Below, in pieces: positions 10,033 through 20,175 of a stretch of 20,175 nucleotides of DNA. A program made the position numbers and the translations under genes. Position 1 is the first letter of the stretch, and each line of letters starts with the position of its first letter. Under the pieces are notes generated by a model. That model was not told the DNA's origin. It saw only the letters and a program-made list of their open reading frames with translations, and did no database searches. The stretch is from Planctomycetota bacterium (GTDB lineage Bacteria; Planctomycetota; J058; JARGOJ01): contig JARGOJ010000031.1 of assembly GCA_029210225.1 (NCBI GenBank), positions 1,841 to 22,015 on the forward strand. Reading direction: 5' to 3'.

Positions 10033-11307
10033 ATGCTTTTTGAACTGAGATTTGTTCATGGCGTGCGTGCGGGTCAGGTTATCAATTTAGATGATAATCA
10101 GACCGTGGTTCTTGGACGTGGAACAGAGACAAACTGTCGCATTCAAGATCCGTCGATTTCACGACGGCACTGCCAGATTACGAACTGTCCGCAGGGCTTA
10201 CTCATAGCGGATCTTGGCTCGTCCAATGGGACCTACGTCAACGGCCAACCCATCAGTCATTGGGTAGCGTTGAACTCTGGGGATCAAGTCGTTCTTGGAC
10301 AAAATCAGGTCGAGATCCATGCGGCGATGATGGTGCAGCAACACCTCTGCACTAGCTGTGGCCGTGAGTTCATGCCTATGGAGTTGACGCAAGGTCGCTT
10401 CAGCCGTGACCCCTCTGGTCGTCTCATTTGCACGGACTGTATGTCAAAGTTCGATTTCGATCCGCACATGATCGAGGGTTACGTCGTCGAGAGCAAGCTC
10501 GGGCAGGGTGCTTTTGGCGCTGTTTTCCGGGCGGTTCAACAGCAAACAGGCCAGGTTGTTGCGTTGAAGACGGTGCGACCCCAGCTCGTTCAAAGCGAGA
10601 GAGACATCGCTCGCTTCTTCCGAGAGGCCAAGGCTGGCGCGGCCTTAGTTCACCCTAATATCATTCGTATTTACGACGCGGGTGAATCTCGTGGCTGTTA
10701 TTACATTGCTATGGAGTATGTTGAGGGGAAGGAGATCGGGAAGCTAATCGAGGAATATGGTCAGATCAACATCGGCTATACCTTGCGGGTTGGAATCCAA
10801 ATCGCGAATGCACTCCAGCATGCTTACGAACGTAGTATTGTCCACCGTGATATTAAGCCTGATAACATTCTCGTTACGGCTCAAGGGCAGGCGAAGCTTG
10901 TCGACTTTGGCTTGGCGAAGAACTTCCAGAGCGCGGGGGTTTCAGGTTTGACGGCGCCGGGAGAGGGCATGGGAACTTTGGCGTATATGCCGCCAGAGCA
11001 GTTGGACAATGCGCTCATGGCTGACCAACGCTCTGACATTTATTCCCTGGGGGCGTCGCTCTATCATATGTTGACGGGGAAGCGTCCCTTTAATGAGAAG
11101 ACGACGCGAAAGTTCATTATGAAAATATTGAACAAGATGCCCGACCCAATTCGCGACCATAATCAGAGTGTTCCACCGGATTTGGAAGAAATCATTGAAA
11201 AGGCCATGGCTAAGGAACCTGAGGATCGTTATGAAATCCCTGAGGATTTTGAACGCGACTTGAAGGACCTCTTTGAACAGATGGCGCGCAATCACGGCGG
11301 GACTTGA
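10033..11307 (+). CDS. FHA domain / C4 zinc-ribbon / Ser-Thr protein kinase, 424 aa
   Basis: N-terminal FHA motif (VVLGRG..CRIQDPSISRRHCQI....GSSNGTYVNGQPI). CTSC...CTDC zinc ribbon. Hanks kinase motifs (LGQGAFGAVF, ALKTV, HRDIKPDNILV, DFGLAK, APE-like PPEQ). SD GGGGAG lies 5 nt upstream of the ATG. Confidence 0.85.
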   Translation: MLFELRFVHGVRAGQVINLDDNQTVVLGRGTETNCRIQDPSISRRHCQITNCPQGLLIADLGSSNGTYVNGQPISHWVALNSGDQVVLGQNQVEIHAAMMVQQHLCTSCGREFMPMELTQGRFSRDPSGRLICTDCMSKFDFDPHMIEGYVVESKLGQGAFGAVFRAVQQQTGQVVALKTVRPQLVQSERDIARFFREAKAGAALVHPNIIRIYDAGESRGCYYIAMEYVEGKEIGKLIEEYGQINIGYTLRVGIQIANALQHAYERSIVHRDIKPDNILVTAQGQAKLVDFGLAKNFQSAGVSGLTAPGEGMGTLAYMPPEQLDNALMADQRSDIYSLGASLYHMLTGKRPFNEKTTRKFIMKILNKMPDPIRDHNQSVPPDLEEIIEKAMAKEPEDRYEIPEDFERDLKDLFEQMARNHGGT

Positions 11308-12971: not shown

Positions 12972-13297
12972 TTGATACCTGGGACGAGGCGGTTGTGATA
13001 CCTGGGATCATGGGAATCACAAAAATGGGGTCTTATCTGGGTCATAGGAAGAGAATAATGGCGAAGGCATATTGATACCTGGGACCAACAACATCGGGTA
13101 CCTGGGACCAACGATGTTTTATACCTGGGATCGACTTCAACTTGTGTTTGGGTTCCTGAATCCTGGTACCTGGGACCTCGGAGCCTCGGGTCAATTTTGA
13201 TACCTGGGATCGGGGTGACCGAGCGTTTCGTCTTCACTGACGAGCTTTTTATGGACGGACAGCTATGCGTTGATTCTCGCTTCGTTGGTACCTGGGA
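12972..13297 (+). repeat. Array of eight direct repeats of a 12-13-bp motif (G/T)(A/G)TACCTGGGA(C/T)C, plus two degenerate copies, all in one orientation
   Basis: Exact copies at 12972, 12995, 13072, 13095, 13118, 13163, 13197 and 13285. Degenerate copies at 13032 (TATCTGGGTCA) and 13149 (GGTTCCTGAATCC). Start-to-start spacings are 23, 77, 23, 23, 45, 34 and 88 bp. Copies 13072/13095/13118 share the extended unit TACCTGGGACCAAC. Confidence 0.75.
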
Positions 13298-13343
13298 TCG
13301 ATTTGAAGAGTCCTTGGACCCTCAACGAGATGTCTGCTTATTC

Positions 13344-13787
13344 CTATAAGATGGAAAGATTGGGATTTATGGATGAGAGTCTCTGTTTGATGGTCTTAAT
13401 GGACTGGGAGACTTTCAGTTGGTCGAGACCGAGGATCATCCCAATCTCAGCGTCTTCAAGCTCTTCAACGTAGTGCAACATGATGATGTGTTGTTCTTGT
13501 CGTGTCCGGTGCCGGGCGACCAAGGCGGGGAAGGAGGCGGCTTCTTGGGGGCTTTTTGGAATGAAGGTCTGATCGGCGACGAGGGCGTCTTTGACGAGCG
13601 CGGAAAATTCTTCATAGGAGAGTCCAAGGGCGTCGGCGACTTCTGCGTCGTTTGCGGGTCGTCCGAGGGATAGTTCAAGGTCTCCAATAAGTTCGAGGAG
13701 ATCTCTATTCTTTGTGGATGATGGTGGGAGACGTTGAATTTTACCGGACCGAGTGAGGTCGAGAGCGATTTTATGTTGATCCATCAT
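13344..13787 (-). CDS. Truncated sigma-factor paralogue of about 147 aa containing only sigma-70 regions 3 and 4
   Basis: Aligns to the C-terminal half of the adjacent FliA-like protein: LELSLGRPANDAEVADALGLSYEEFSALV vs LETILGRKANDLELAEHLDISLKELDSLV; HIIMLHYVEELEDAEIGMILGLDQLKVSQSIKTIKQRL vs LIVMLYYFEELTMREIGMILDLSESRVCQLHARIVKRL. There is no region-2 sequence. ATGATG at 13787/13784 is preceded by AAAGGGG. The track ORF extends in-frame to a TTG at 13883. Confidence 0.6.
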   Translation of the reverse strand: MMDQHKIALDLTRSGKIQRLPPSSTKNRDLLELIGDLELSLGRPANDAEVADALGLSYEEFSALVKDALVADQTFIPKSPQEAASFPALVARHRTRQEQHIIMLHYVEELEDAEIGMILGLDQLKVSQSIKTIKQRLSSINPNLSIL

Positions 13788-13921
13788 TGAGTACCCCTTT
13801 TGCCTGTCATACACAGACAGTACCCGACTCACAAGAGAGTCTAAGTTTAGTGATGATTGAATATAGAGACTAGTGCCGAACAAACAAAACCACTACTAGC
13901 AGTCGTTCTTTACAGACCTAT

Positions 13922-13950
13922 ACTATATGCAGTGTGACGAAAGATCGCAA
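13922..13950 (-). promoter_or_regulatory. Candidate sigma-70-type promoter for the truncated sigma gene
   Basis: On the minus strand: TTGCGA (13950-13945), 17-bp spacer, TATAGT (13927-13922). About 125 nt upstream of the ATG. Confidence 0.3.
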
Positions 13951-14043
13951 AGTTCTTTTAAAGTCAAAAATCCTACTTCATTAAGTAGTTGGTAGAATCC
14001 CAATACTTATATATCGGAGTGGTGAGTAAGGAAGTGAAGGCCG

Positions 14044-14082
14044 AAAAAAAGGATAAAGCGCGCCTGCTTCGAGGCGCGCTTT
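14044..14082 (-). terminator. Intrinsic terminator of the fliA-like gene
   Basis: Perfect 11-bp stem AAAGCGCGCCT / AGGCGCGCTTT with loop GCTTCG (14055-14082). On the minus strand it is followed by AUCC plus U7 (the + strand A7 at 14044-14050). It lies 50 nt past the stop at 14135. Confidence 0.7.
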
Positions 14083-14134
14083 CGCGTGTGTGCACAGATT
14101 TTATGGGTTTAGAGGCGGATTCCTAGAGAGGATC

Positions 14135-14941
14135 TCAGGAGATGAGTTCGTCTCTGCGATCACCGAGTTCCTTCTGAAGACGTTTCACAATTCGAGCATG
14201 AAGTTGGCACACTCTAGACTCACTCAGGTCCAAGATCATACCAATCTCGCGCATTGTGAGCTCTTCAAAGTAGTAGAGCATGACGATCAGGCGTTCTTTC
14301 ATGTTGAGTCGCTTAGAGACGAGCTCCATGAAATCGGTGGACTGGATTTTGTCGATAGGGTCGACTTCTTTTTTGTCGGCAATGATATCGATGGTTTGAA
14401 CGGCTTTTCCACCGTCATCATCGTGCCATTTATCGGAGAGACTCATGATTTGAGTGGCCGTCCCACCGCGAACCAAGGAGTCGAGTTCTTTGAGGCTGAT
14501 GTCAAGGTGCTCGGCGAGCTCTAAATCGTTCGCTTTGCGTCCCAGAATCGTCTCAAGCTCTTGTTGAGCCGCGCCGACCTTGGAGGCTTTTGTGCGAACT
14601 AGGCGAGGCACCCAGTCAGACTGACGGAGGTGGTCGAGAATCGCGCCACGAACGCGGAGAGCACAGTATGTTTTGAACTTCACGGCGCGTTCGATATCGT
14701 ATCCGTCGATCGCATCCATGAGGCCGAAGACGCCGGCGCTAAACAGATCGCCGAGTTCGACGCTTTGTGGTAACTTTGTGAGTAGGCGCTCAGCGCTGTA
14801 TCGGACGACTGGTAAGTAATGCTCGATGAGGCGGTTTCTGATTCCTTCGTCTTTTGTCTTCTTGTATTCTTCCCACAACTCTCTTGGCGCTTCTTTGACT
14901 TTACCCCGTGAACGGCTTGCATCCCTTGTAATAACTGTCAC
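14135..14941 (-). CDS. fliA: Sigma-28-type alternative sigma factor (FliA/WhiG/SigD family), 268 aa
   Basis: Regions 2, 3 and 4 are present: region 2 (DLFSAGVFGLMDAIDGYD..FKTYCALRVRGAILDHLR), region 4 HTH (ERLIVMLYYFEELTMREIGMILDLSESRVCQLHARIVKRLQ). GTG start at 14941 with SD AAAGGGG 9 nt upstream. Confidence 0.85.
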   Translation of the reverse strand: MTVITRDASRSRGKVKEAPRELWEEYKKTKDEGIRNRLIEHYLPVVRYSAERLLTKLPQSVELGDLFSAGVFGLMDAIDGYDIERAVKFKTYCALRVRGAILDHLRQSDWVPRLVRTKASKVGAAQQELETILGRKANDLELAEHLDISLKELDSLVRGGTATQIMSLSDKWHDDDGGKAVQTIDIIADKKEVDPIDKIQSTDFMELVSKRLNMKERLIVMLYYFEELTMREIGMILDLSESRVCQLHARIVKRLQKELGDRRDELIS

Positions 14942-15003
14942 TATTATGACCCCTTTAATTTATGTATTTCAAAATCCCACTGCCCGAGAATTTGGAACAC
15001 CGT

Positions 15004-15033
15004 CATAGACCCCCCTAGAGTCTATGGATAGAC
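15004..15033. promoter_or_regulatory. Operator-like cluster of inverted half-sites 63-92 bp upstream of the fliA-like start
   Basis: CATAGAC-N9-GTCTATG (15004-15026) overlapping GTCTAT-GG-ATAGAC (15020-15033). Three perfect ATAGAC/GTCTAT half-sites plus a degenerate CTAGAG. Confidence 0.4.
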
Positions 15034-15229
15034 GAGCGACTTCACCCAAAGCTCTCTATCTTGTGTCCCTCTCGACAAAAGACACGATAGCAAGAGTTAT
15101 TATTAGAAGCCAAGTCGGAATTAAAGATGTCTCCATAGTTTTTTCCAAAATAGGGATACATTCACAATCCGCCCCTCTCATGTAGACTGTAAAGCAATAT
15201 AAACAATAGACTTAAGATATAGCGAGGGT

Positions 15230-15919
15230 CCTGTATTCAAATTGTCAAGAAAAGAAAAAAGCCCTCAACGATTGTTGACACAAAAGTGCACTTGAGCAAA
15301 AAAGCACATTTTGTAGGGGTCTTGAGAATTAAACAACACCATATAGTAGAAAAACAAGCAAGATCTAGGCTTCCACCAGCTATTTCATGACCGATAAAAC
15401 GATCAAATTTGAGACTAACCTTAGAACATCCTCTCCTCAAAGATACCTAGTTGCAATCAACACACGCTTATGGCGCCAGTATCACACACCACCAAGACAT
15501 GAAAGCTCAAAAAACGACAGACGGAGCGATCCGTGCAAAGCCAATAAACAAGCCAATTCTCGCGTACCTGGGACAAATCGATTCTCCTCGACATCTTCCC
15601 CCCAAAGCATCCACACTCGCTCCCGCCTCACACTTCTCCACCAATCTGCTTCTTGAAAAAATGTCGCACCCCGCTCAAAGCCCCCAAAACCAACTCTCCT
15701 ACACAAGAACAACTCAAGAACGTCGTGTTTCACGCCCCAACATCCTCGCGCCCCAACAACACCGGCGTTAAACCCTAGAAAGAGAAACAAGCTTCCCTAT
15801 CCTTATTTATATAGGCGAAAAAGGTCTCACTACTCTTTACGCCCGCATATATCGATAAGGGACAAAGCGCCTGTCGGTGGCTTCCATTACAATGAAGCTC
15901 CACAAACGCAACATATCCA
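15230..15919 (+). other. About 690 bp of strongly G-depleted, CA-rich non-coding DNA (+ strand) immediately upstream of dnaG; part of a 978-bp non-coding interval (14942-15919)
   Basis: No convincing ORF on either strand; the track ORFs there translate to low-complexity S/P/T/Q/H-rich peptides without SD. The + strand has very few G (runs of C and A, e.g. CCCCCAAAACCAACTCTCCTACACAAGAACAACTCAAGAAC). Confidence 0.5.
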
Positions 15920-17857
15920 GTGCCAGTACCTGTGAAAGAGGTTGCCGTGGGTCGAATACCCCCAGAACAAATCGATTTGATTCGCGAACGCGCCGATATC
16001 GTCGCACTCATCGGTGAACGCCTTCAACTCACTCAAAAAGGTCGGCAATTTTGGGCCTGCTGCCCATTCCACGGCGAAAAAACCGCATCCTTCAGCGTTC
16101 ACCCAGAACGACAGATATACAAATGCTTCGGCTGCCAAAAAGGTGGCAACATCTTCGGCTTCCTTAAAGACTACGAACGCGTCAACTTTCCCGAAGCCGT
16201 CCGCATGGTCGCCGAAACCGTCGGCATCGAAATCAAAGAAGAGAAAAGCACCAAAGCTTCCCAAAAACGGCAAAGCGAAAGAAAAGGACTCCTTGAAGTC
16301 GCCGATGCCGTTTGCCAATACTTCGAAGACCAACTCTGGACCCCAACACTGACTCACGGACGCAAATACCTCAAAGAACGCGGCATCACCAAAGAAAGCG
16401 CCAAAAAGTTCCGCGTCGGACTCGCCCCCCAAGGCTGGGACAACCTGCTGAAATGGGCCGAAAAGAATCGCGTCTCCACAGACTCCCTCGTCAAACTCGG
16501 ACTCCTCGTTCAACGAGAAAAAGACGGCCGAAACCGCTGCTATGACCGATTCCGAGATCGACTCATGTTCCCCATCTCCGACGACCGCGGTCGAGTCATC
16601 GCCTTCGGAGGACGACGCTTCTCCGACGACCCAGAAACTCCCAAATACATAAACTCCTCAGAAGTCCCCGGCCTCTTCGAAAAGCGACGCGTCCTCTACG
16701 GTCTCCACCACACCAAAGAATCCAGAGCCCGACGCCTCATCATTGTTGAAGGATACACCGACGTGATCATGGCCGTCCAAGCCGGCGTGCTAGGCACCGT
16801 CGCCGTACTTGGGACCGCCTTTGGACCCGATCACATTCCCCTCGTTCGTCGCTTCGCCGACCAAGTGATCGTCCTCTTCGACGGCGATGCCGCCGGCCAA
16901 GCAGCCGCTCAACGATCCCTGGGAGCTCTCGTCCCCGTCGACCTCGAAGTCCGCGTCGCCATACTCCAAGGCGCCAAAGACCCATGCGACCTCATCGTCG
17001 AAAAAGGACCCGACGCCCTCAACCAAATCGTTGATACCGCCCCCGAAGTCTTCGACTTCCTCCTCGACTCACTCCAGGATCAAGCCCAACAATCACTCTC
17101 CGCACGAGCCAAAGCCATTGAAGAAATTCTCAAGCTTCTCGCTCCCATGGACCCCATAAGACTCCATCTCCATATTGGACGCTTTGCTCACCGCTTCTCC
17201 ATTCCCGAAGAAGAACTCCGAGAACGCATCAAAGCCGCTCGCAATCCCAATAAAGGGAAAAAATCTAACGACGGACCCGATGGCGACAATCGCTCCAACG
17301 ATCAAAACAGACGGCGCTCATGGACCCCCAAATTCAAAGGCAAAGGCAAAAAAGGCTTTCCACAAAAACCCGACCCCTTCGCGAACAGCCCCTCCCCCAA
17401 ACAATTTAACTTTGGCCGCGGCGCTGAAATGAAAATCCTAGAAGCCCTCCTCGCCGCACCAACCCACATAGCAACTGTCTTCACAATCCTCACTCCTAGA
17501 CACTTCTCCGAAGGCCCCTCACGGAACCTCGCGATCCGGCTCCAAGTCGCTGCCGACCTCGGACAAACAGTCAGCGAAGCCAACCTTTACAATGAACTTG
17601 AAGGCCGAGAACTCGAACTTCTCACATACCTCGGATCGAAAATTCACGAAGGACAACAACGGGAAAAAGACTATGAATCCGAACTCGCTCCAGAAGCATG
17701 CCACCACATCGTGAAAACCCTCCGGAAGCAACAAAGGGAAGAAGTACGTGGCCTCCTTAAAGAAGCCCTCCGTGAAGGTCGGCAAGAAGATGCCCTCGCC
17801 CTAGAAAAAGAACTCGATTCACTATTCCAAGAAATTCAATCTGCAAACAAAAGTTAA
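15920..17857 (+). CDS. dnaG: DNA primase DnaG, 645 aa
   Basis: CHC2 zinc finger (CCPFHGEKTASFSV..YKCFGCQKGGNIFGFL). RNA-polymerase/Toprim core (IVEGYTDVIM, VLFDGDAAGQAAA). C-terminal helicase-binding region after a basic low-complexity linker. GTG at 15920; a GTG at 15947 (MGRIPPEQIDLIRERADIV) is an alternative start. Confidence 0.9.
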   Translation: MPVPVKEVAVGRIPPEQIDLIRERADIVALIGERLQLTQKGRQFWACCPFHGEKTASFSVHPERQIYKCFGCQKGGNIFGFLKDYERVNFPEAVRMVAETVGIEIKEEKSTKASQKRQSERKGLLEVADAVCQYFEDQLWTPTLTHGRKYLKERGITKESAKKFRVGLAPQGWDNLLKWAEKNRVSTDSLVKLGLLVQREKDGRNRCYDRFRDRLMFPISDDRGRVIAFGGRRFSDDPETPKYINSSEVPGLFEKRRVLYGLHHTKESRARRLIIVEGYTDVIMAVQAGVLGTVAVLGTAFGPDHIPLVRRFADQVIVLFDGDAAGQAAAQRSLGALVPVDLEVRVAILQGAKDPCDLIVEKGPDALNQIVDTAPEVFDFLLDSLQDQAQQSLSARAKAIEEILKLLAPMDPIRLHLHIGRFAHRFSIPEEELRERIKAARNPNKGKKSNDGPDGDNRSNDQNRRRSWTPKFKGKGKKGFPQKPDPFANSPSPKQFNFGRGAEMKILEALLAAPTHIATVFTILTPRHFSEGPSRNLAIRLQVAADLGQTVSEANLYNELEGRELELLTYLGSKIHEGQQREKDYESELAPEACHHIVKTLRKQQREEVRGLLKEALREGRQEDALALEKELDSLFQEIQSANKS

Positions 17858-17948
17858 TCAACGATTTTTTTTATTGAACTTATGTGCCCGGCCATTCGTT
17901 TGAAAGGGCAAGAATTGCTAGGAATACAAGTCGATTCTCGTTTTTGAA

Positions 17949-17978
17949 ACAGGGTGATTTGACCCCTGCTTCAACCGC
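17949..17978 (+). promoter_or_regulatory. Candidate sigma-70 promoter for rpoD within the dnaG-rpoD spacer
   Basis: TTGACC (17949-17954), 18-bp spacer, TATAAA (17973-17978). About 265 nt upstream of the rpoD ATG. Confidence 0.35.
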
Positions 17979-18246
17979 TTTTTATAAAGGATTCATTGAA
18001 TTTGGGGCCGTTTCCCTTAAACTCTTCCAACCTTTTTCCGCTCCGAGATGTGTGTTAAGGACAGTTCCCTCAGGTTGAACGTCCGCCATCCGGGACAGAT
18101 GGGATTTGGTCATCCATACTAATTATCTGCGTATTTTTTTCGACGCCCTATATCGATGATCTCTGCAAGCGCGGATTAAACATTGTGGTCAAGGGATACC
18201 CCTTCGATAGTTTCCATGACTATCTCAAGGAAACTCAGGAGTAAGC

Positions 18247-20175
18247 ATGAGCCGTTCGTCGGTCACTGAAACCAAGAAATCTAATACGAAGAAATCTTCA
18301 ACCACAAAAGCGGAGGGCACGGCGAAAACCAAATCCTCCAGCTCCCCAGCGTCAGCAAAGGAAAGCAAAAGCAAAGCCGCACCCAAAAAACGCGCCGCAG
18401 CAAAACCCGCCAGCAAAGCTAAAAAAACACCGGCTAAAAAGAAGGCTCCTGCGAAGAGCGCAGAAAAGGCTGCGGAAGTCGAAACCGCCGATGCGCCAAA
18501 AACCGCTGCCAAGAAAGCTCGGGCGAAAACTAAAAAACCCGCTGCCGCTGCGAAAACAACGAAAAGCCGCGCTAAAGCTAAAAAACCCGCCGCTAAGGGG
18601 AAATCCCAAAAGACTGCTGCCGGTAAGGGCAAAAAAGGGAAGTCAAGTAAGGAAAAGTCTGACTTCAGCGACGAAGAGCTTGATGAAGAGTCCACCCTCA
18701 CCCTCGACGACGAAAGTCTTGATGAAGATGACGACGTCGTCGATCCCGATGGAACCGCAGACGGTGAGGAAGACGAAACCGCTGACGAACTCGACGATGA
18801 AGAACTCAACGAAGACGACGAAGACGACGAAGACGACGATGAAGAGCTCGGCCGAGCTCGAGACGAAGCCTACGAAGAACTCGCCGGGGAATACCACCGC
18901 ACCGTCACCGAGAAGATCGACGACCCGGTTCGCATGTATCTCACTCAAATGGGTGAAATTCCTCTTCTCTCACGTCAAAAAGAACTTGAATACGCCAAGC
19001 GCATCGAAATCTTTCGCAAACGCTTCCGCTACCTCGTATTCTGCTCTCTCGAACAACTCACGCAGGGTGTTGAGATTCTTGAAAATGTCATGCAAGGGCA
19101 GCTCGCCTTTGACCGGACCCTCAAAATTGCGGGAACCGAAGAGACAACGAAAATTGAGCTCACTGAGCGCCTCCCCCATGTCGTCGTCATCCTTCGCAAG
19201 AACCTAGAGCGTGTTCGCGCCCTCTTCGATAAATCACGCGCCAAACTCCGCGCCAAAGAACGAAGAGAGGTCCTCCAACTTCTCAAAGTCAGACGCCGAC
19301 GCACTATTTCTATTCTCGAAGAGTGTGGCGTCCAAATTAAGCTCGTTCGCCCAATGCTCGACGTTCTCCGCGAACACCTTGCCATGATGCGCCGCATCAA
19401 AAAGGACATCGAAGTCGGTGGTACCAGCGGACCTGAAGCCAAAATCTCTGTGGAAAAACTCAAGGCCATTGAAGATCGCCTCGGATTTGGTTTCGAAGAC
19501 TTCAGCAACCACATGCACTACCTCGAAAAGCGCTTCACCGCTTACGAGAAAGCGAAGCGTGACCTCTCCGGAGGAAACCTCCGCTTGGTCGTGTCCATCG
19601 CTAAGAAGTATCGCAACCGTGGTCTCTCCTTCCTCGACCTCATTCAAGAAGGAAACACTGGCCTCATGAAGGCCGTGGAGAAATACGAGTATCGCCGAGG
19701 ATATAAATTCTCGACCTACGCAACATGGTGGATTCGACAAGCGATCACACGATCCATCGCCGACCAGGCCCGCACCATTCGTATTCCCGTCCACATGATC
19801 GAAACCATGTCGAAACTGCGGAATATCTCCAAGAAGCTCGTTCAAGAAATGGGTCGCGAACCCACAATTGAAGAACTAGCCTCGAAGCTTGGTATGCCCG
19901 TGGCCGAGTGTCGGCGAATCATGAAGATCTCAAAGCACCCAATTTCCCTTGACCGTCCTATCGGCGAGAGCGACGACGGTTTCTTTGGTGACTTCATTGA
20001 AGATAAATCGGCCGAATCACCGGTCAACGCCGCCACATACGAAATGCTTAAAGACAAGCTTGAGAAGGTCCTCGAAACCCTGACCTTCCGTGAGCGCGAG
20101 ATCATCAAACTTCGCTATGGAATCGGCGACGGATACACCTACACTCTCGAAGAAGTTGGACGGATCTTCAAGGTC
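18247..20175 (+). CDS. rpoD: Primary sigma factor RpoD (sigma-70), 3'-truncated by the window edge; N-terminal histone-H1-like K/A/P-rich tail and acidic tract precede region 1.2
   Basis: Open frame from the ATG at 18247 (SD GGAG upstream) to the window end (643 codons, no stop). It is absent from the ORF track because it has no stop. Region 1.2 ([29 protein letters not shown]), region 2 ([73 protein letters not shown]), region 3 and the start of region 4 ([27 protein letters not shown]) are present. Confidence 0.9.

Follow-up and report, generated by a model that had tools for sequence, protein, structure and literature searches.

In a 20,175-nucleotide stretch of DNA from an uncultured Planctomycetota bacterium (GenBank assembly GCA_029210225.1, contig JARGOJ010000031.1, positions 1,841 to 22,015; hereafter 'the window'), we identified a stand-alone gene for a short sigma-factor-like protein directly downstream of fliA. 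This short gene is kept by purifying selection in one Planctomycetota clade. Its product cannot act as a sigma factor, because regions 2.1-2.3, which hold the main core-binding and DNA-melting determinants, are gone. Instead, we propose with a probability of roughly 0.4 that it is a protein-level mimic of sigma-28 (FliA) that most plausibly binds an FlgM-like anti-sigma-28 as a sink or carrier and thereby feeds back on FliA.

An intact gene under purifying selection

The short gene lies within an open reading frame (ORF) at 13344-13883 on the reverse strand. A conserved ATG at 13787 gives a protein of 147 amino acids (aa), an exact match to NCBI P1V97_03195 (P0001 in our set), a 'hypothetical protein' of a Planctomycetota metagenome-assembled genome. 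An earlier note on this DNA had proposed a ~147-aa product with its own Shine-Dalgarno sequence, and both were found (AAGGGG at 13799-13794, a motif common to fliA and the short gene). The gene and its parent have the following coordinates.

13344..13787, reverse strand: the short gene from ATG through stop codon, encoding the 147-aa sigma3-sigma4 paralogue of FliA; orthologues intact
13794..13799, reverse strand: Shine-Dalgarno AAGGGG, 6 nt 5' of the short-gene ATG; invariant in four loci
14135..14941, reverse strand: parent gene fliA, encoding a FliA/WhiG-family sigma factor of 268 aa with regions 2, 3 and 4 (Pfam r2, r3 and r4; TIGR02479 240 bits against a cut-off of 189.6)

We identified six orthologues, counting that of the window (the others are on contigs L001, L002, L003, P0005 and P0008). 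All are intact and come from one uncultured Planctomycetota clade. Four are 82, 77, 68 and 62% identical to the window protein; P0008 is 45% identical, and its true start gives 139 aa. In alignment, the internal length of the protein is identical in all six.

The same architecture in six independent assemblies agrees with the earlier claim that the gene is not a frameshifted fragment. Likewise, the conserved Shine-Dalgarno sequence and fliA terminator, together with promoter-like blocks, uphold its description as a separate paralogue with its own signals behind a strong terminator. The note had named beforehand, as the observation that would count against it, an indel whose correction restores a region-2-containing ORF, and no such indel was found. 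It had also reported no region-2 remnant in the gap between the two genes, in line with our tblastn search of FliA residues 1-125 against the gap and gene of four loci in any frame (best E 0.28, matches neither collinear nor shared). The six intact assemblies and the lack of a region-2 remnant rule out a frameshift or assembly artefact of a second fliA copy. More generally, frameshift and pseudogene readings are rejected because the orthologues are intact and conserved, their ratio of nonsynonymous to synonymous substitution rates (dN/dS) is 0.09-0.19, no region-2 remnant is present and internal lengths do not differ.

Selection was estimated pairwise among the four members with DNA sequence. 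The proportion of differing synonymous sites (pS) is 0.52-0.82, near saturation, while that of nonsynonymous sites (pN) is 0.12-0.23. In each pairwise comparison, nonsynonymous changes are by far the rarer class (Fisher p <= 6e-14), and dN/dS is about 0.09-0.19 where dS is estimable. In the same genomes (L001 and L002), fliA is 97-98% identical with a dN/dS of about 0.01-0.02. The short gene thus evolves ~8 times faster than fliA in dN, yet is under clear purifying selection. The earlier note had called for a check of conservation and selection in relatives, and six orthologues with dN/dS of about 0.1-0.2 are the result. Its suggestion of a decaying tandem duplicate, for which it looked to absence from relatives and dN/dS near 1, is contradicted by these values and by the p <= 6e-14 of each pair.

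The family is small. When 1.84 billion cluster representatives were searched with the family profile, just two clusters scored below 1e-30, the rest being full-length sigma-28 or its fragments. No orthologue came up in pattern scans of GTDB species genomes or JGI metagenomes, and none of 160 other fliA loci from the GTDB and JGI collections has one downstream of fliA. Nor was a homologue found in the two syntenic TARA outgroup loci (L166 and L167), in which the order is dnaG, fliA, an 804-bp gap, htrA, the FHA-domain kinase gene and the pyruvate dehydrogenase E1 gene (best E in the gap 0.89). Another syntenic outgroup contig (P0160) has no called gene at the short-gene position. FliA is 63-68% identical in these syntenic relatives that do not have the short gene. 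The short gene either originated in this one poorly sampled clade or has survived only there.

In each of the six contigs, the short gene lies directly 3' of the gene for the 268-aa sigma, which faces, and is divergent from, dnaG. The gene beyond it varies, being htrA in some contigs and gcpE in another, so it is fliA to which the short gene is linked.

Domain content and relation to FliA

The window protein is 32% identical to the neighbouring 268-aa FliA/WhiG protein over 128 aa (BLASTP, E 2e-14), which confirms the paralogy to regions 3 and 4 of the adjacent FliA-like protein that the earlier note had read from the sequence. That note expected profile matches to regions 3 and 4 without region 2. 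The match to Sigma70_r4 is above its Pfam cut-off (E 2e-6, 27.6 bits against 24.1) and there is no Pfam match to Sigma70_r2, as expected. Sigma70_r3 is below its cut-off in the window protein (E 0.0015, 19 bits against 25.3); among orthologues it reaches 28.7 bits in P0005, above the cut-off, and 23 bits in P0008.

The TIGR02479 FliA_WhiG model gives the short protein 42 bits against its cut-off of 189.6, and all other sigma models also fall far under theirs. Alignment to the FliA profile begins only at profile position 117, with the region 3 part covering FliA 117-166. Regions 2.1-2.3 are absent and only the last ~12 residues of region 2.4/3.0 are kept. The earlier statement that region 2 is completely lacking therefore holds for regions 2.1-2.3; the protein is not strictly sigma3-sigma4-only, as an N-terminal motif aligns to the region 2.4/3.0 junction. 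The further statement that the protein 'cannot bind core RNA polymerase' was too strong, as the protein still has the sigma-4 groove used for docking on the beta flap.

No FlgM match (Pfam PF04316) was obtained at E <= 1, so the short protein is sigma-like and not FlgM-like. Profile searches found no receiver or any further domain in the 147 aa. Faint matches to helix-turn-helix families of the LuxR/GerE and YlxM types occur in P0005 only (GerE E 0.055, UPF0122 E 0.009), both under the cut-offs. The short protein belongs to no curated family; its sequence marks it as a derivative of the sigma-70 family and a candidate sigma mimic. It consists of four segments.

13728..13763, reverse strand: N-terminal motif LDLTRSGKIQRL, codons 9-20; 10 of 12 residues invariant; relic of the FliA region 2.4/3.0 junction ILDHLRQSDWVPRL
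13572..13706, reverse strand: sigma domain 3, residues 28-72, three helices (Pfam Sigma70_r3, AlphaFold, and PDB profile matches to FliA sigma-3)
13533..13571, reverse strand: shortened linker between domains 3 and 4, residues 73-85; most constrained segment of the gene (pN/pS 0.10)
13368..13532, reverse strand: sigma domain 4, residues 86-140 (Pfam Sigma70_r4); predicted local distance difference test (pLDDT) 73-90; conserved hydrophobic groove, variable recognition helix

The N-terminal motif, LDLTRSGK(I/L)xRL at residues 9-20 in the family, is the sharpest conserved stretch, and L9, D10 and R19 are invariant across all short proteins and FliAs. R19 aligns with R97 of Pseudomonas aeruginosa FliA (PaFliA), an extended -10 contact. 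D10 and R19 align with D81 and R91 of Escherichia coli sigma-28, residues tied to extended -10 recognition. The linker is shortened: from the LGR anchor in sigma-3 to region 4.1 there are 56 aa in the short protein and 82 aa in FliA, a difference of 26.

AlphaFold predicts two confident helical domains, with residues 1-27 and 72-84 disordered, whether 5 or 43 sequences are supplied. The N-terminal motif lies in the disordered part (pLDDT < 50). Sigma-3 spans residues 30-72 of the model, with helices at 30-41, 47-53 and 58-72 (pLDDT about 76-79). Overall confidence is moderate (mean pLDDT 65), and a predicted template modelling score of 0.38 makes the arrangement of the domains uninformative. 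Among solved structures, the nearest relatives are sigma-28/FlgM complexes and sigma-28 holoenzymes.

FlgM-contacting and promoter-reading residues

Residues of PaFliA that contact FlgM or -35 bases were taken from the P. aeruginosa sigma-28/FlgM crystal structure and open complex (PMC12784957) and transferred to the short protein through the profile alignment.

PaFliA L187, FlgM contact: F86 of the short protein, invariant
PaFliA I191, FlgM contact: V90, invariant
PaFliA L200, FlgM contact: H/Q/E100, not conserved
PaFliA A203, FlgM contact: M103, invariant
PaFliA L204, FlgM contact: L104, invariant
PaFliA Y206, FlgM contact: Y106, invariant
PaFliA E209, FlgM contact: E/D/K109, not conserved
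PaFliA L210, FlgM contact: L/F110, conservative
PaFliA S224, -35 base contact: position 124, L/G/D/I/F/M across the six orthologues
PaFliA Q228, -35 base contact: position 128, Q/Q/R/E/Q/E across the six orthologues

At seven of the eight FlgM-contact positions, the short protein has the same residue as the window's own FliA. L204R in PaFliA lowers FlgM affinity about 200-fold, Q228A strongly reduces transcription, and in the sigma-28/FlgM crystal structure the linker between domains 3 and 4 is packed between sigma-4 and FlgM (PMC12784957). The EIGMIL stretch of sigma-4 is identical between the short protein and FliA.

The recognition helix of region 4.2 behaves differently. In FliA it reads SESRVCQLH, unchanged in every genome of the clade, whereas the six short proteins have DQLKVSQSI, DQGKISQSL, DEDKVQRSL, SEIKVIEML, DAFKVSQSL and SEMHVVEIL. 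By segment, pN/pS is lowest in the linker, 0.19 over sigma-4 as a whole and 0.43 in the recognition helix (residues 122-134), where constraint is weakest. A constrained groove and linker beside a drifting recognition helix fit a protein-binding surface and not a sequence-specific -35 reader.

A proposed sigma-28 mimic and competing explanations

These observations are the basis for our proposal of a sigma-28 mimic. The sigma-4 groove, the short linker between domains 3 and 4 and the N-terminal LDLTRSGKIxRL tail are its constrained surfaces, and their counterparts in real sigma-28 hold FlgM. The short protein may capture an FlgM-like anti-sigma-28 in this way, either as a sink (an anti-anti-sigma) or as a dedicated carrier. 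Such capture would set the amount of FliA that is free for RNA polymerase. An FlgM sink was among the roles suggested in the earlier note, and the pattern of conservation is compatible with it. Titration of an anti-sigma by a sigma-like domain has a precedent in PhyR-NepR (PMC4551977, PMC4598750), and the proposal draws further support from the sigma-28/FlgM complexes among the nearest solved structures and from a second FliA-derived family after fliA in Phycisphaeraceae (described below).

Several observations weigh against FlgM capture. Two of the FlgM-contact equivalents, those of L200 and E209, are not conserved. FlgM also needs sigma-2 contacts (R40, R82 and R90 in P. aeruginosa) that are gone from the short protein, so its affinity for FlgM may be low. 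Approximate Salmonella and Bacillus FlgM probes found no match in the 170 fetched loci, of which the window spans ~20 kb, a negative that carries little information because the probes are approximate and flgM need not adjoin fliA. Finally, conservation of the groove cannot separate FlgM binding from binding to the beta flap of RNA polymerase, because its residues are the core of any sigma-4 and beta-flap docking surface.

This last point leads to an alternative that we regard as unlikely but worth attention: an RNA polymerase binder whose sigma-4 groove would sit at the tip of the beta flap, while sigma-3 might or might not contact the core. It would compete with sigma factors on the polymerase or modulate them, as a dominant-negative 'micro-sigma' or accessory factor with no role as an anti-sigma sink. 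Among the folded parts, conservation is highest in the groove and regions 4.1/4.2a; EIGMIL is shared with FliA, the fold matches sigma-28 in holoenzyme structures, and the conserved linker could occupy the RNA exit channel. However, the main determinant of core affinity, the contact of sigma-2 with the beta-prime coiled coil, is missing (PMC4598750). The spacing between sigma-3 and sigma-4 is 26 residues under that of FliA, with ~13 modelled as disordered, and is probably too short to span both canonical sites; a general sigma competitor would also be costly for the cell. The -35 decoy or DNA-binding regulator listed among the possible roles in the earlier note fares worse, and we consider it distinctly improbable. 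It would bind duplex DNA at sigma-28-type promoters or at another operator, through the sigma-4 helix-turn-helix and with R19 and sigma-3 at a GC resembling an extended -10, and would repress or activate without melting, for which it has a retained helix-turn-helix fold, D10 and R19 aligned with the extended -10 recognition residues, and conserved DNA blocks and a dense (G/A)TACCTGGGA(C/T)C array around the gene (described below). Yet the equivalents of S224 and Q228 differ among orthologues and the recognition helix is the least constrained part of sigma-4, while the FliA helix and nearby DNA motifs are invariant in those same genomes, and a near-palindrome upstream of the gene is not conserved.

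Retention of sigma-3, sigma-4 and the tail of region 2.4 would also suit the C-terminal subunit of a split sigma factor, partnered by an unlinked sigma-2-only protein, and two-subunit sigma factors such as SigO-RsoA do exist (PMC10141391, PMC7826278). We give this explanation little weight. A FliA-profile search of the 20-kb window found only fliA, rpoD and the short gene, and no sigma-2-only ORF occurs there or among the called genes of the orthologous contigs. The only linked sigma gene encodes a complete FliA, whereas SigO and RsoA are encoded side by side, and drifting -35-reading residues speak against a role in promoter specificity. Least probable of all, and already largely refuted, is a non-functional leftover, either a partial tandem duplicate in decay or a second fliA copy distorted by misassembly or a frameshift. 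Its faster dN, its restriction to a tiny family in one clade and the syntenic outgroups that do not have it would be expected of such a relic. Against this stand a frame that is intact and of the same length class in six assemblies at 45-82% identity with synonymous sites near saturation, a dN/dS of about 0.1-0.2, conserved Shine-Dalgarno, promoter-like and terminator elements, and the lack of a region-2 remnant in any frame.

Origin of the short gene

By its sequence, the short gene is a functional, lineage-specific offshoot of the neighbouring fliA. It probably arose by a partial tandem duplication of fliA in which the end of region 2.4 and all that follows it were retained. Scored with the family profile, the FliA of this clade reaches 70-71.5 bits, compared with 61.5 bits for the best other full-length sigma among the cluster representatives. 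Identity of the short proteins to every nearby FliA lineage falls in the same range of 28-37%, and the duplication cannot be dated because of this equal distance.

In the P0005 contig (JGI 3300072015), a further full-length sigma of 263 aa (P0163), which shares 63% identity with FliA, is encoded between fliA and the short gene, so that this relative has three FliA-type genes in a row. Tandem sigma duplication therefore does occur at this locus. A closer relation of the short protein to this 263-aa sigma was considered and rejected on the same 28-37% identities.

A second family in Phycisphaeraceae

In marine Phycisphaeraceae, the gene directly after fliA encodes a protein of 173-181 aa with two sigma-4-like repeats and without sigma-3. 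This double-sigma-4 gene was found at the following positions, after fliA in each case.

L047, 6928-7473: double-sigma-4 gene
L106, 807-1412: double-sigma-4 gene
L168-L170, about 1054-1639: double-sigma-4 gene (P0280)

P0277, also a member, is a cluster with 104 sequences. Repeat 1 shares 44% identity with the sigma-4 of its own FliA (E 3e-10) and keeps the SESRV of the recognition helix. The family is conserved in synteny down to 40% identity (P0280), and we found no description of it in the literature. Like the window family, it is a small FliA-derived C-terminal fragment gene immediately after fliA in Planctomycetota. The two families share only about 20% identity, which indicates that the double-sigma-4 family arose independently. 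FliA C-terminal fragments beside fliA thus arose at least twice in Planctomycetota, which argues for recurrent selective use and suggests a recurrent solution over a one-off accident.

Regulatory signals and genomic context

The gap between fliA and the short gene was described earlier as AT-rich and 250 bp long. It is AT-rich (GC content 0.38-0.43, against 0.5-0.59 in genes), but measures 347 bp from the fliA stop to the ATG, of which ~265 bp lie past the terminator. The gap contains the following elements.

14040..14082, reverse strand: fliA intrinsic terminator with an 11-bp stem (7 G-C pairs) at 14082-14055 and a T-tract; conserved in four loci
14011..14017, reverse strand: invariant CCGATAT just past the fliA terminator, resembling the sigma-28 -10 core; invariance in four loci is its sole support
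13960..13970, reverse strand: invariant TTTTTGACTTT block 5' of the putative promoter (four-locus alignment)
13922..13950, reverse strand: putative sigma-70-type promoter TTGCGA-17-TATAGT (consensus scan), with the -10 within an invariant TATATAGTA block

The terminator stem carries a compensatory G-C to A-T change in L003. A TTCTTGACA block that resembles TTTTTGACTTT is present upstream of fliA. The CCGATAT element may be a sigma-28-dependent promoter; motifs of this type are not above chance in the window (4 against 3.3 expected), and no TAAA-type -35 is present near it. The near-palindrome, placed at 13974-13989 in the earlier note, is actually at 13973-13988; outside the window it is conserved only in part, in L002. 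We rejected it as an operator, as it is not conserved across loci. Rfam gave no match on the whole window at gathering thresholds or on 13700-15950 at E <= 5.

The ~190-nt leader of fliA (14942-15135, reverse strand) is almost invariant in three genomes although flanking synonymous sites are saturated; it corresponds to about 2066-2254 in L001 and about 4667-4855 in L002. The leader holds a 26-codon hydrophobic ORF, METSLIPTWLLIITLAIVSFVERDTR (15056-15136), and three predicted hairpins, and has no Rfam match. It could be a riboregulator or a leader peptide controlling fliA.

The motif (G/A)TACCTGGGA(C/T)C occurs 13 times in the window against 0.42 expected. Eight copies form an array at 12976-13301 (forward strand), irregularly spaced by 23-88 bp, in the gap between the convergent htrA and short gene; others lie at 15565, 2605 and 2270. 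In relatives, copies occur in L001 at 3852-4207, in L002 at 6587-6686 and 4201-4223, and in L003 at 1156-1367. The array is 3' of the short gene in all loci of the clade and absent from the outgroups, and may be a repetitive extragenic palindromic (REP)-like or binding-site array.

The locus has the short gene and fliA on one strand, facing dnaG and rpoD on the other. The classic dnaG-rpoD pair occupies 15920-20175 (forward strand), ~1 kb from fliA. rpoD (18220-20175), which encodes the primary sigma with regions 1.2, 2, 3 and 4, is cut by the window end. Three sigma-family genes (the short gene, fliA and rpoD) thus lie within 7 kb. The other flank encodes an HtrA-type protease, an FHA-domain kinase and pyruvate dehydrogenase E1; the FHA-domain Ser/Thr protein kinase gene (10033-11307, forward strand) is beside that of the HtrA-type protease, a placement that is syntenic in the TARA outgroup. 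Farther away are a gene for a tandem-Usp protein (3068-3982, forward strand), which like the kinase gene has no established link to the short gene, and a 938-aa ORF (4073-6889, reverse strand) encoding a bacterial homologue of the eukaryotic major vault protein (Pfam MVP_shoulder 3e-20, Vault_3 3.5e-7).

Comparison with known systems and implications

The best sequence and structure matches of the short protein are the homologous domains 3 and 4 of group 3 sigma-28 factors of the FliA/WhiG type, such as those from Aquifex aeolicus and P. aeruginosa (with FlgM, PDB 1rp3 and 9wsf; holoenzymes, 6pmi and 9wsm). The sigma-4 groove residues that hold FlgM in these proteins are also found in the short protein. 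In contrast to sigma-28, it has no regions 2.1-2.3, a linker region 26 residues shorter and -35-reading residues that are not conserved, and it scores far below the family cut-off (42 against 189.6 bits).

Sigma factors are usually under the control of unrelated anti-sigma proteins, and to our knowledge only PhyR, which acts on extracytoplasmic function (ECF) sigmas, has been well studied as a sigma look-alike that exerts such control. In the PhyR-NepR-EcfG partner switch of Alphaproteobacteria, the sigma-like domain of PhyR titrates the anti-sigma NepR (PMC4551977, PMC4598750). Both PhyR and the short protein have a sigma-derived domain that has lost sigma function and whose DNA-reading residues are degenerate, and the Pfam PhyR_sigma-like model gives weak sub-threshold matches. 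However, what PhyR imitates is an ECF sigma (domains 2 and 4), and its sigma-like domain is fused to a receiver that can be phosphorylated, whereas the short protein has its origin in a group 3 sigma (domains 3 and 4) and stands alone with no visible switch domain, and its anti-sigma binding is only proposed.

SigO-RsoA of Bacillus subtilis resembles the short gene in that a partial set of sigma domains is encoded as a separate gene. It differs in that complementary halves make one sigma, whereas the neighbour of the short gene is already complete and no sigma-2-only partner was found in the 20-kb window. Eukaryotic 'microProteins' (such as Id/HLH) are truncated paralogues that keep an interaction surface, lose the catalytic or DNA-engaging part and titrate partners. 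The short protein would follow the same logic in another kingdom and fold, as an analogy only.

It is possible, though on balance doubtful, that the short protein represents the first sigma-mimicry partner switch for a group 3 sigma, capturing an FlgM-like anti-sigma or chaperoning it for export and thereby setting the level of free FliA, and that such FliA C-terminal decoys were invented at least twice in Planctomycetota through partial tandem duplication, as the window family and as the double-sigma-4 family of Phycisphaeraceae. If the protein is instead inert, the gene still records how long a gene fragment can persist under selection. If the mimicry proposal is true, it would extend sigma mimicry from ECF to group 3 sigmas by means of a free-standing half-copy beside the parent gene, and would reveal a simple route to a regulator, in which partial tandem duplication is followed by loss of DNA reading. 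The short gene would then offer a testable handle on the timing of motility-gene expression in budding, swarmer-forming planctomycetes.

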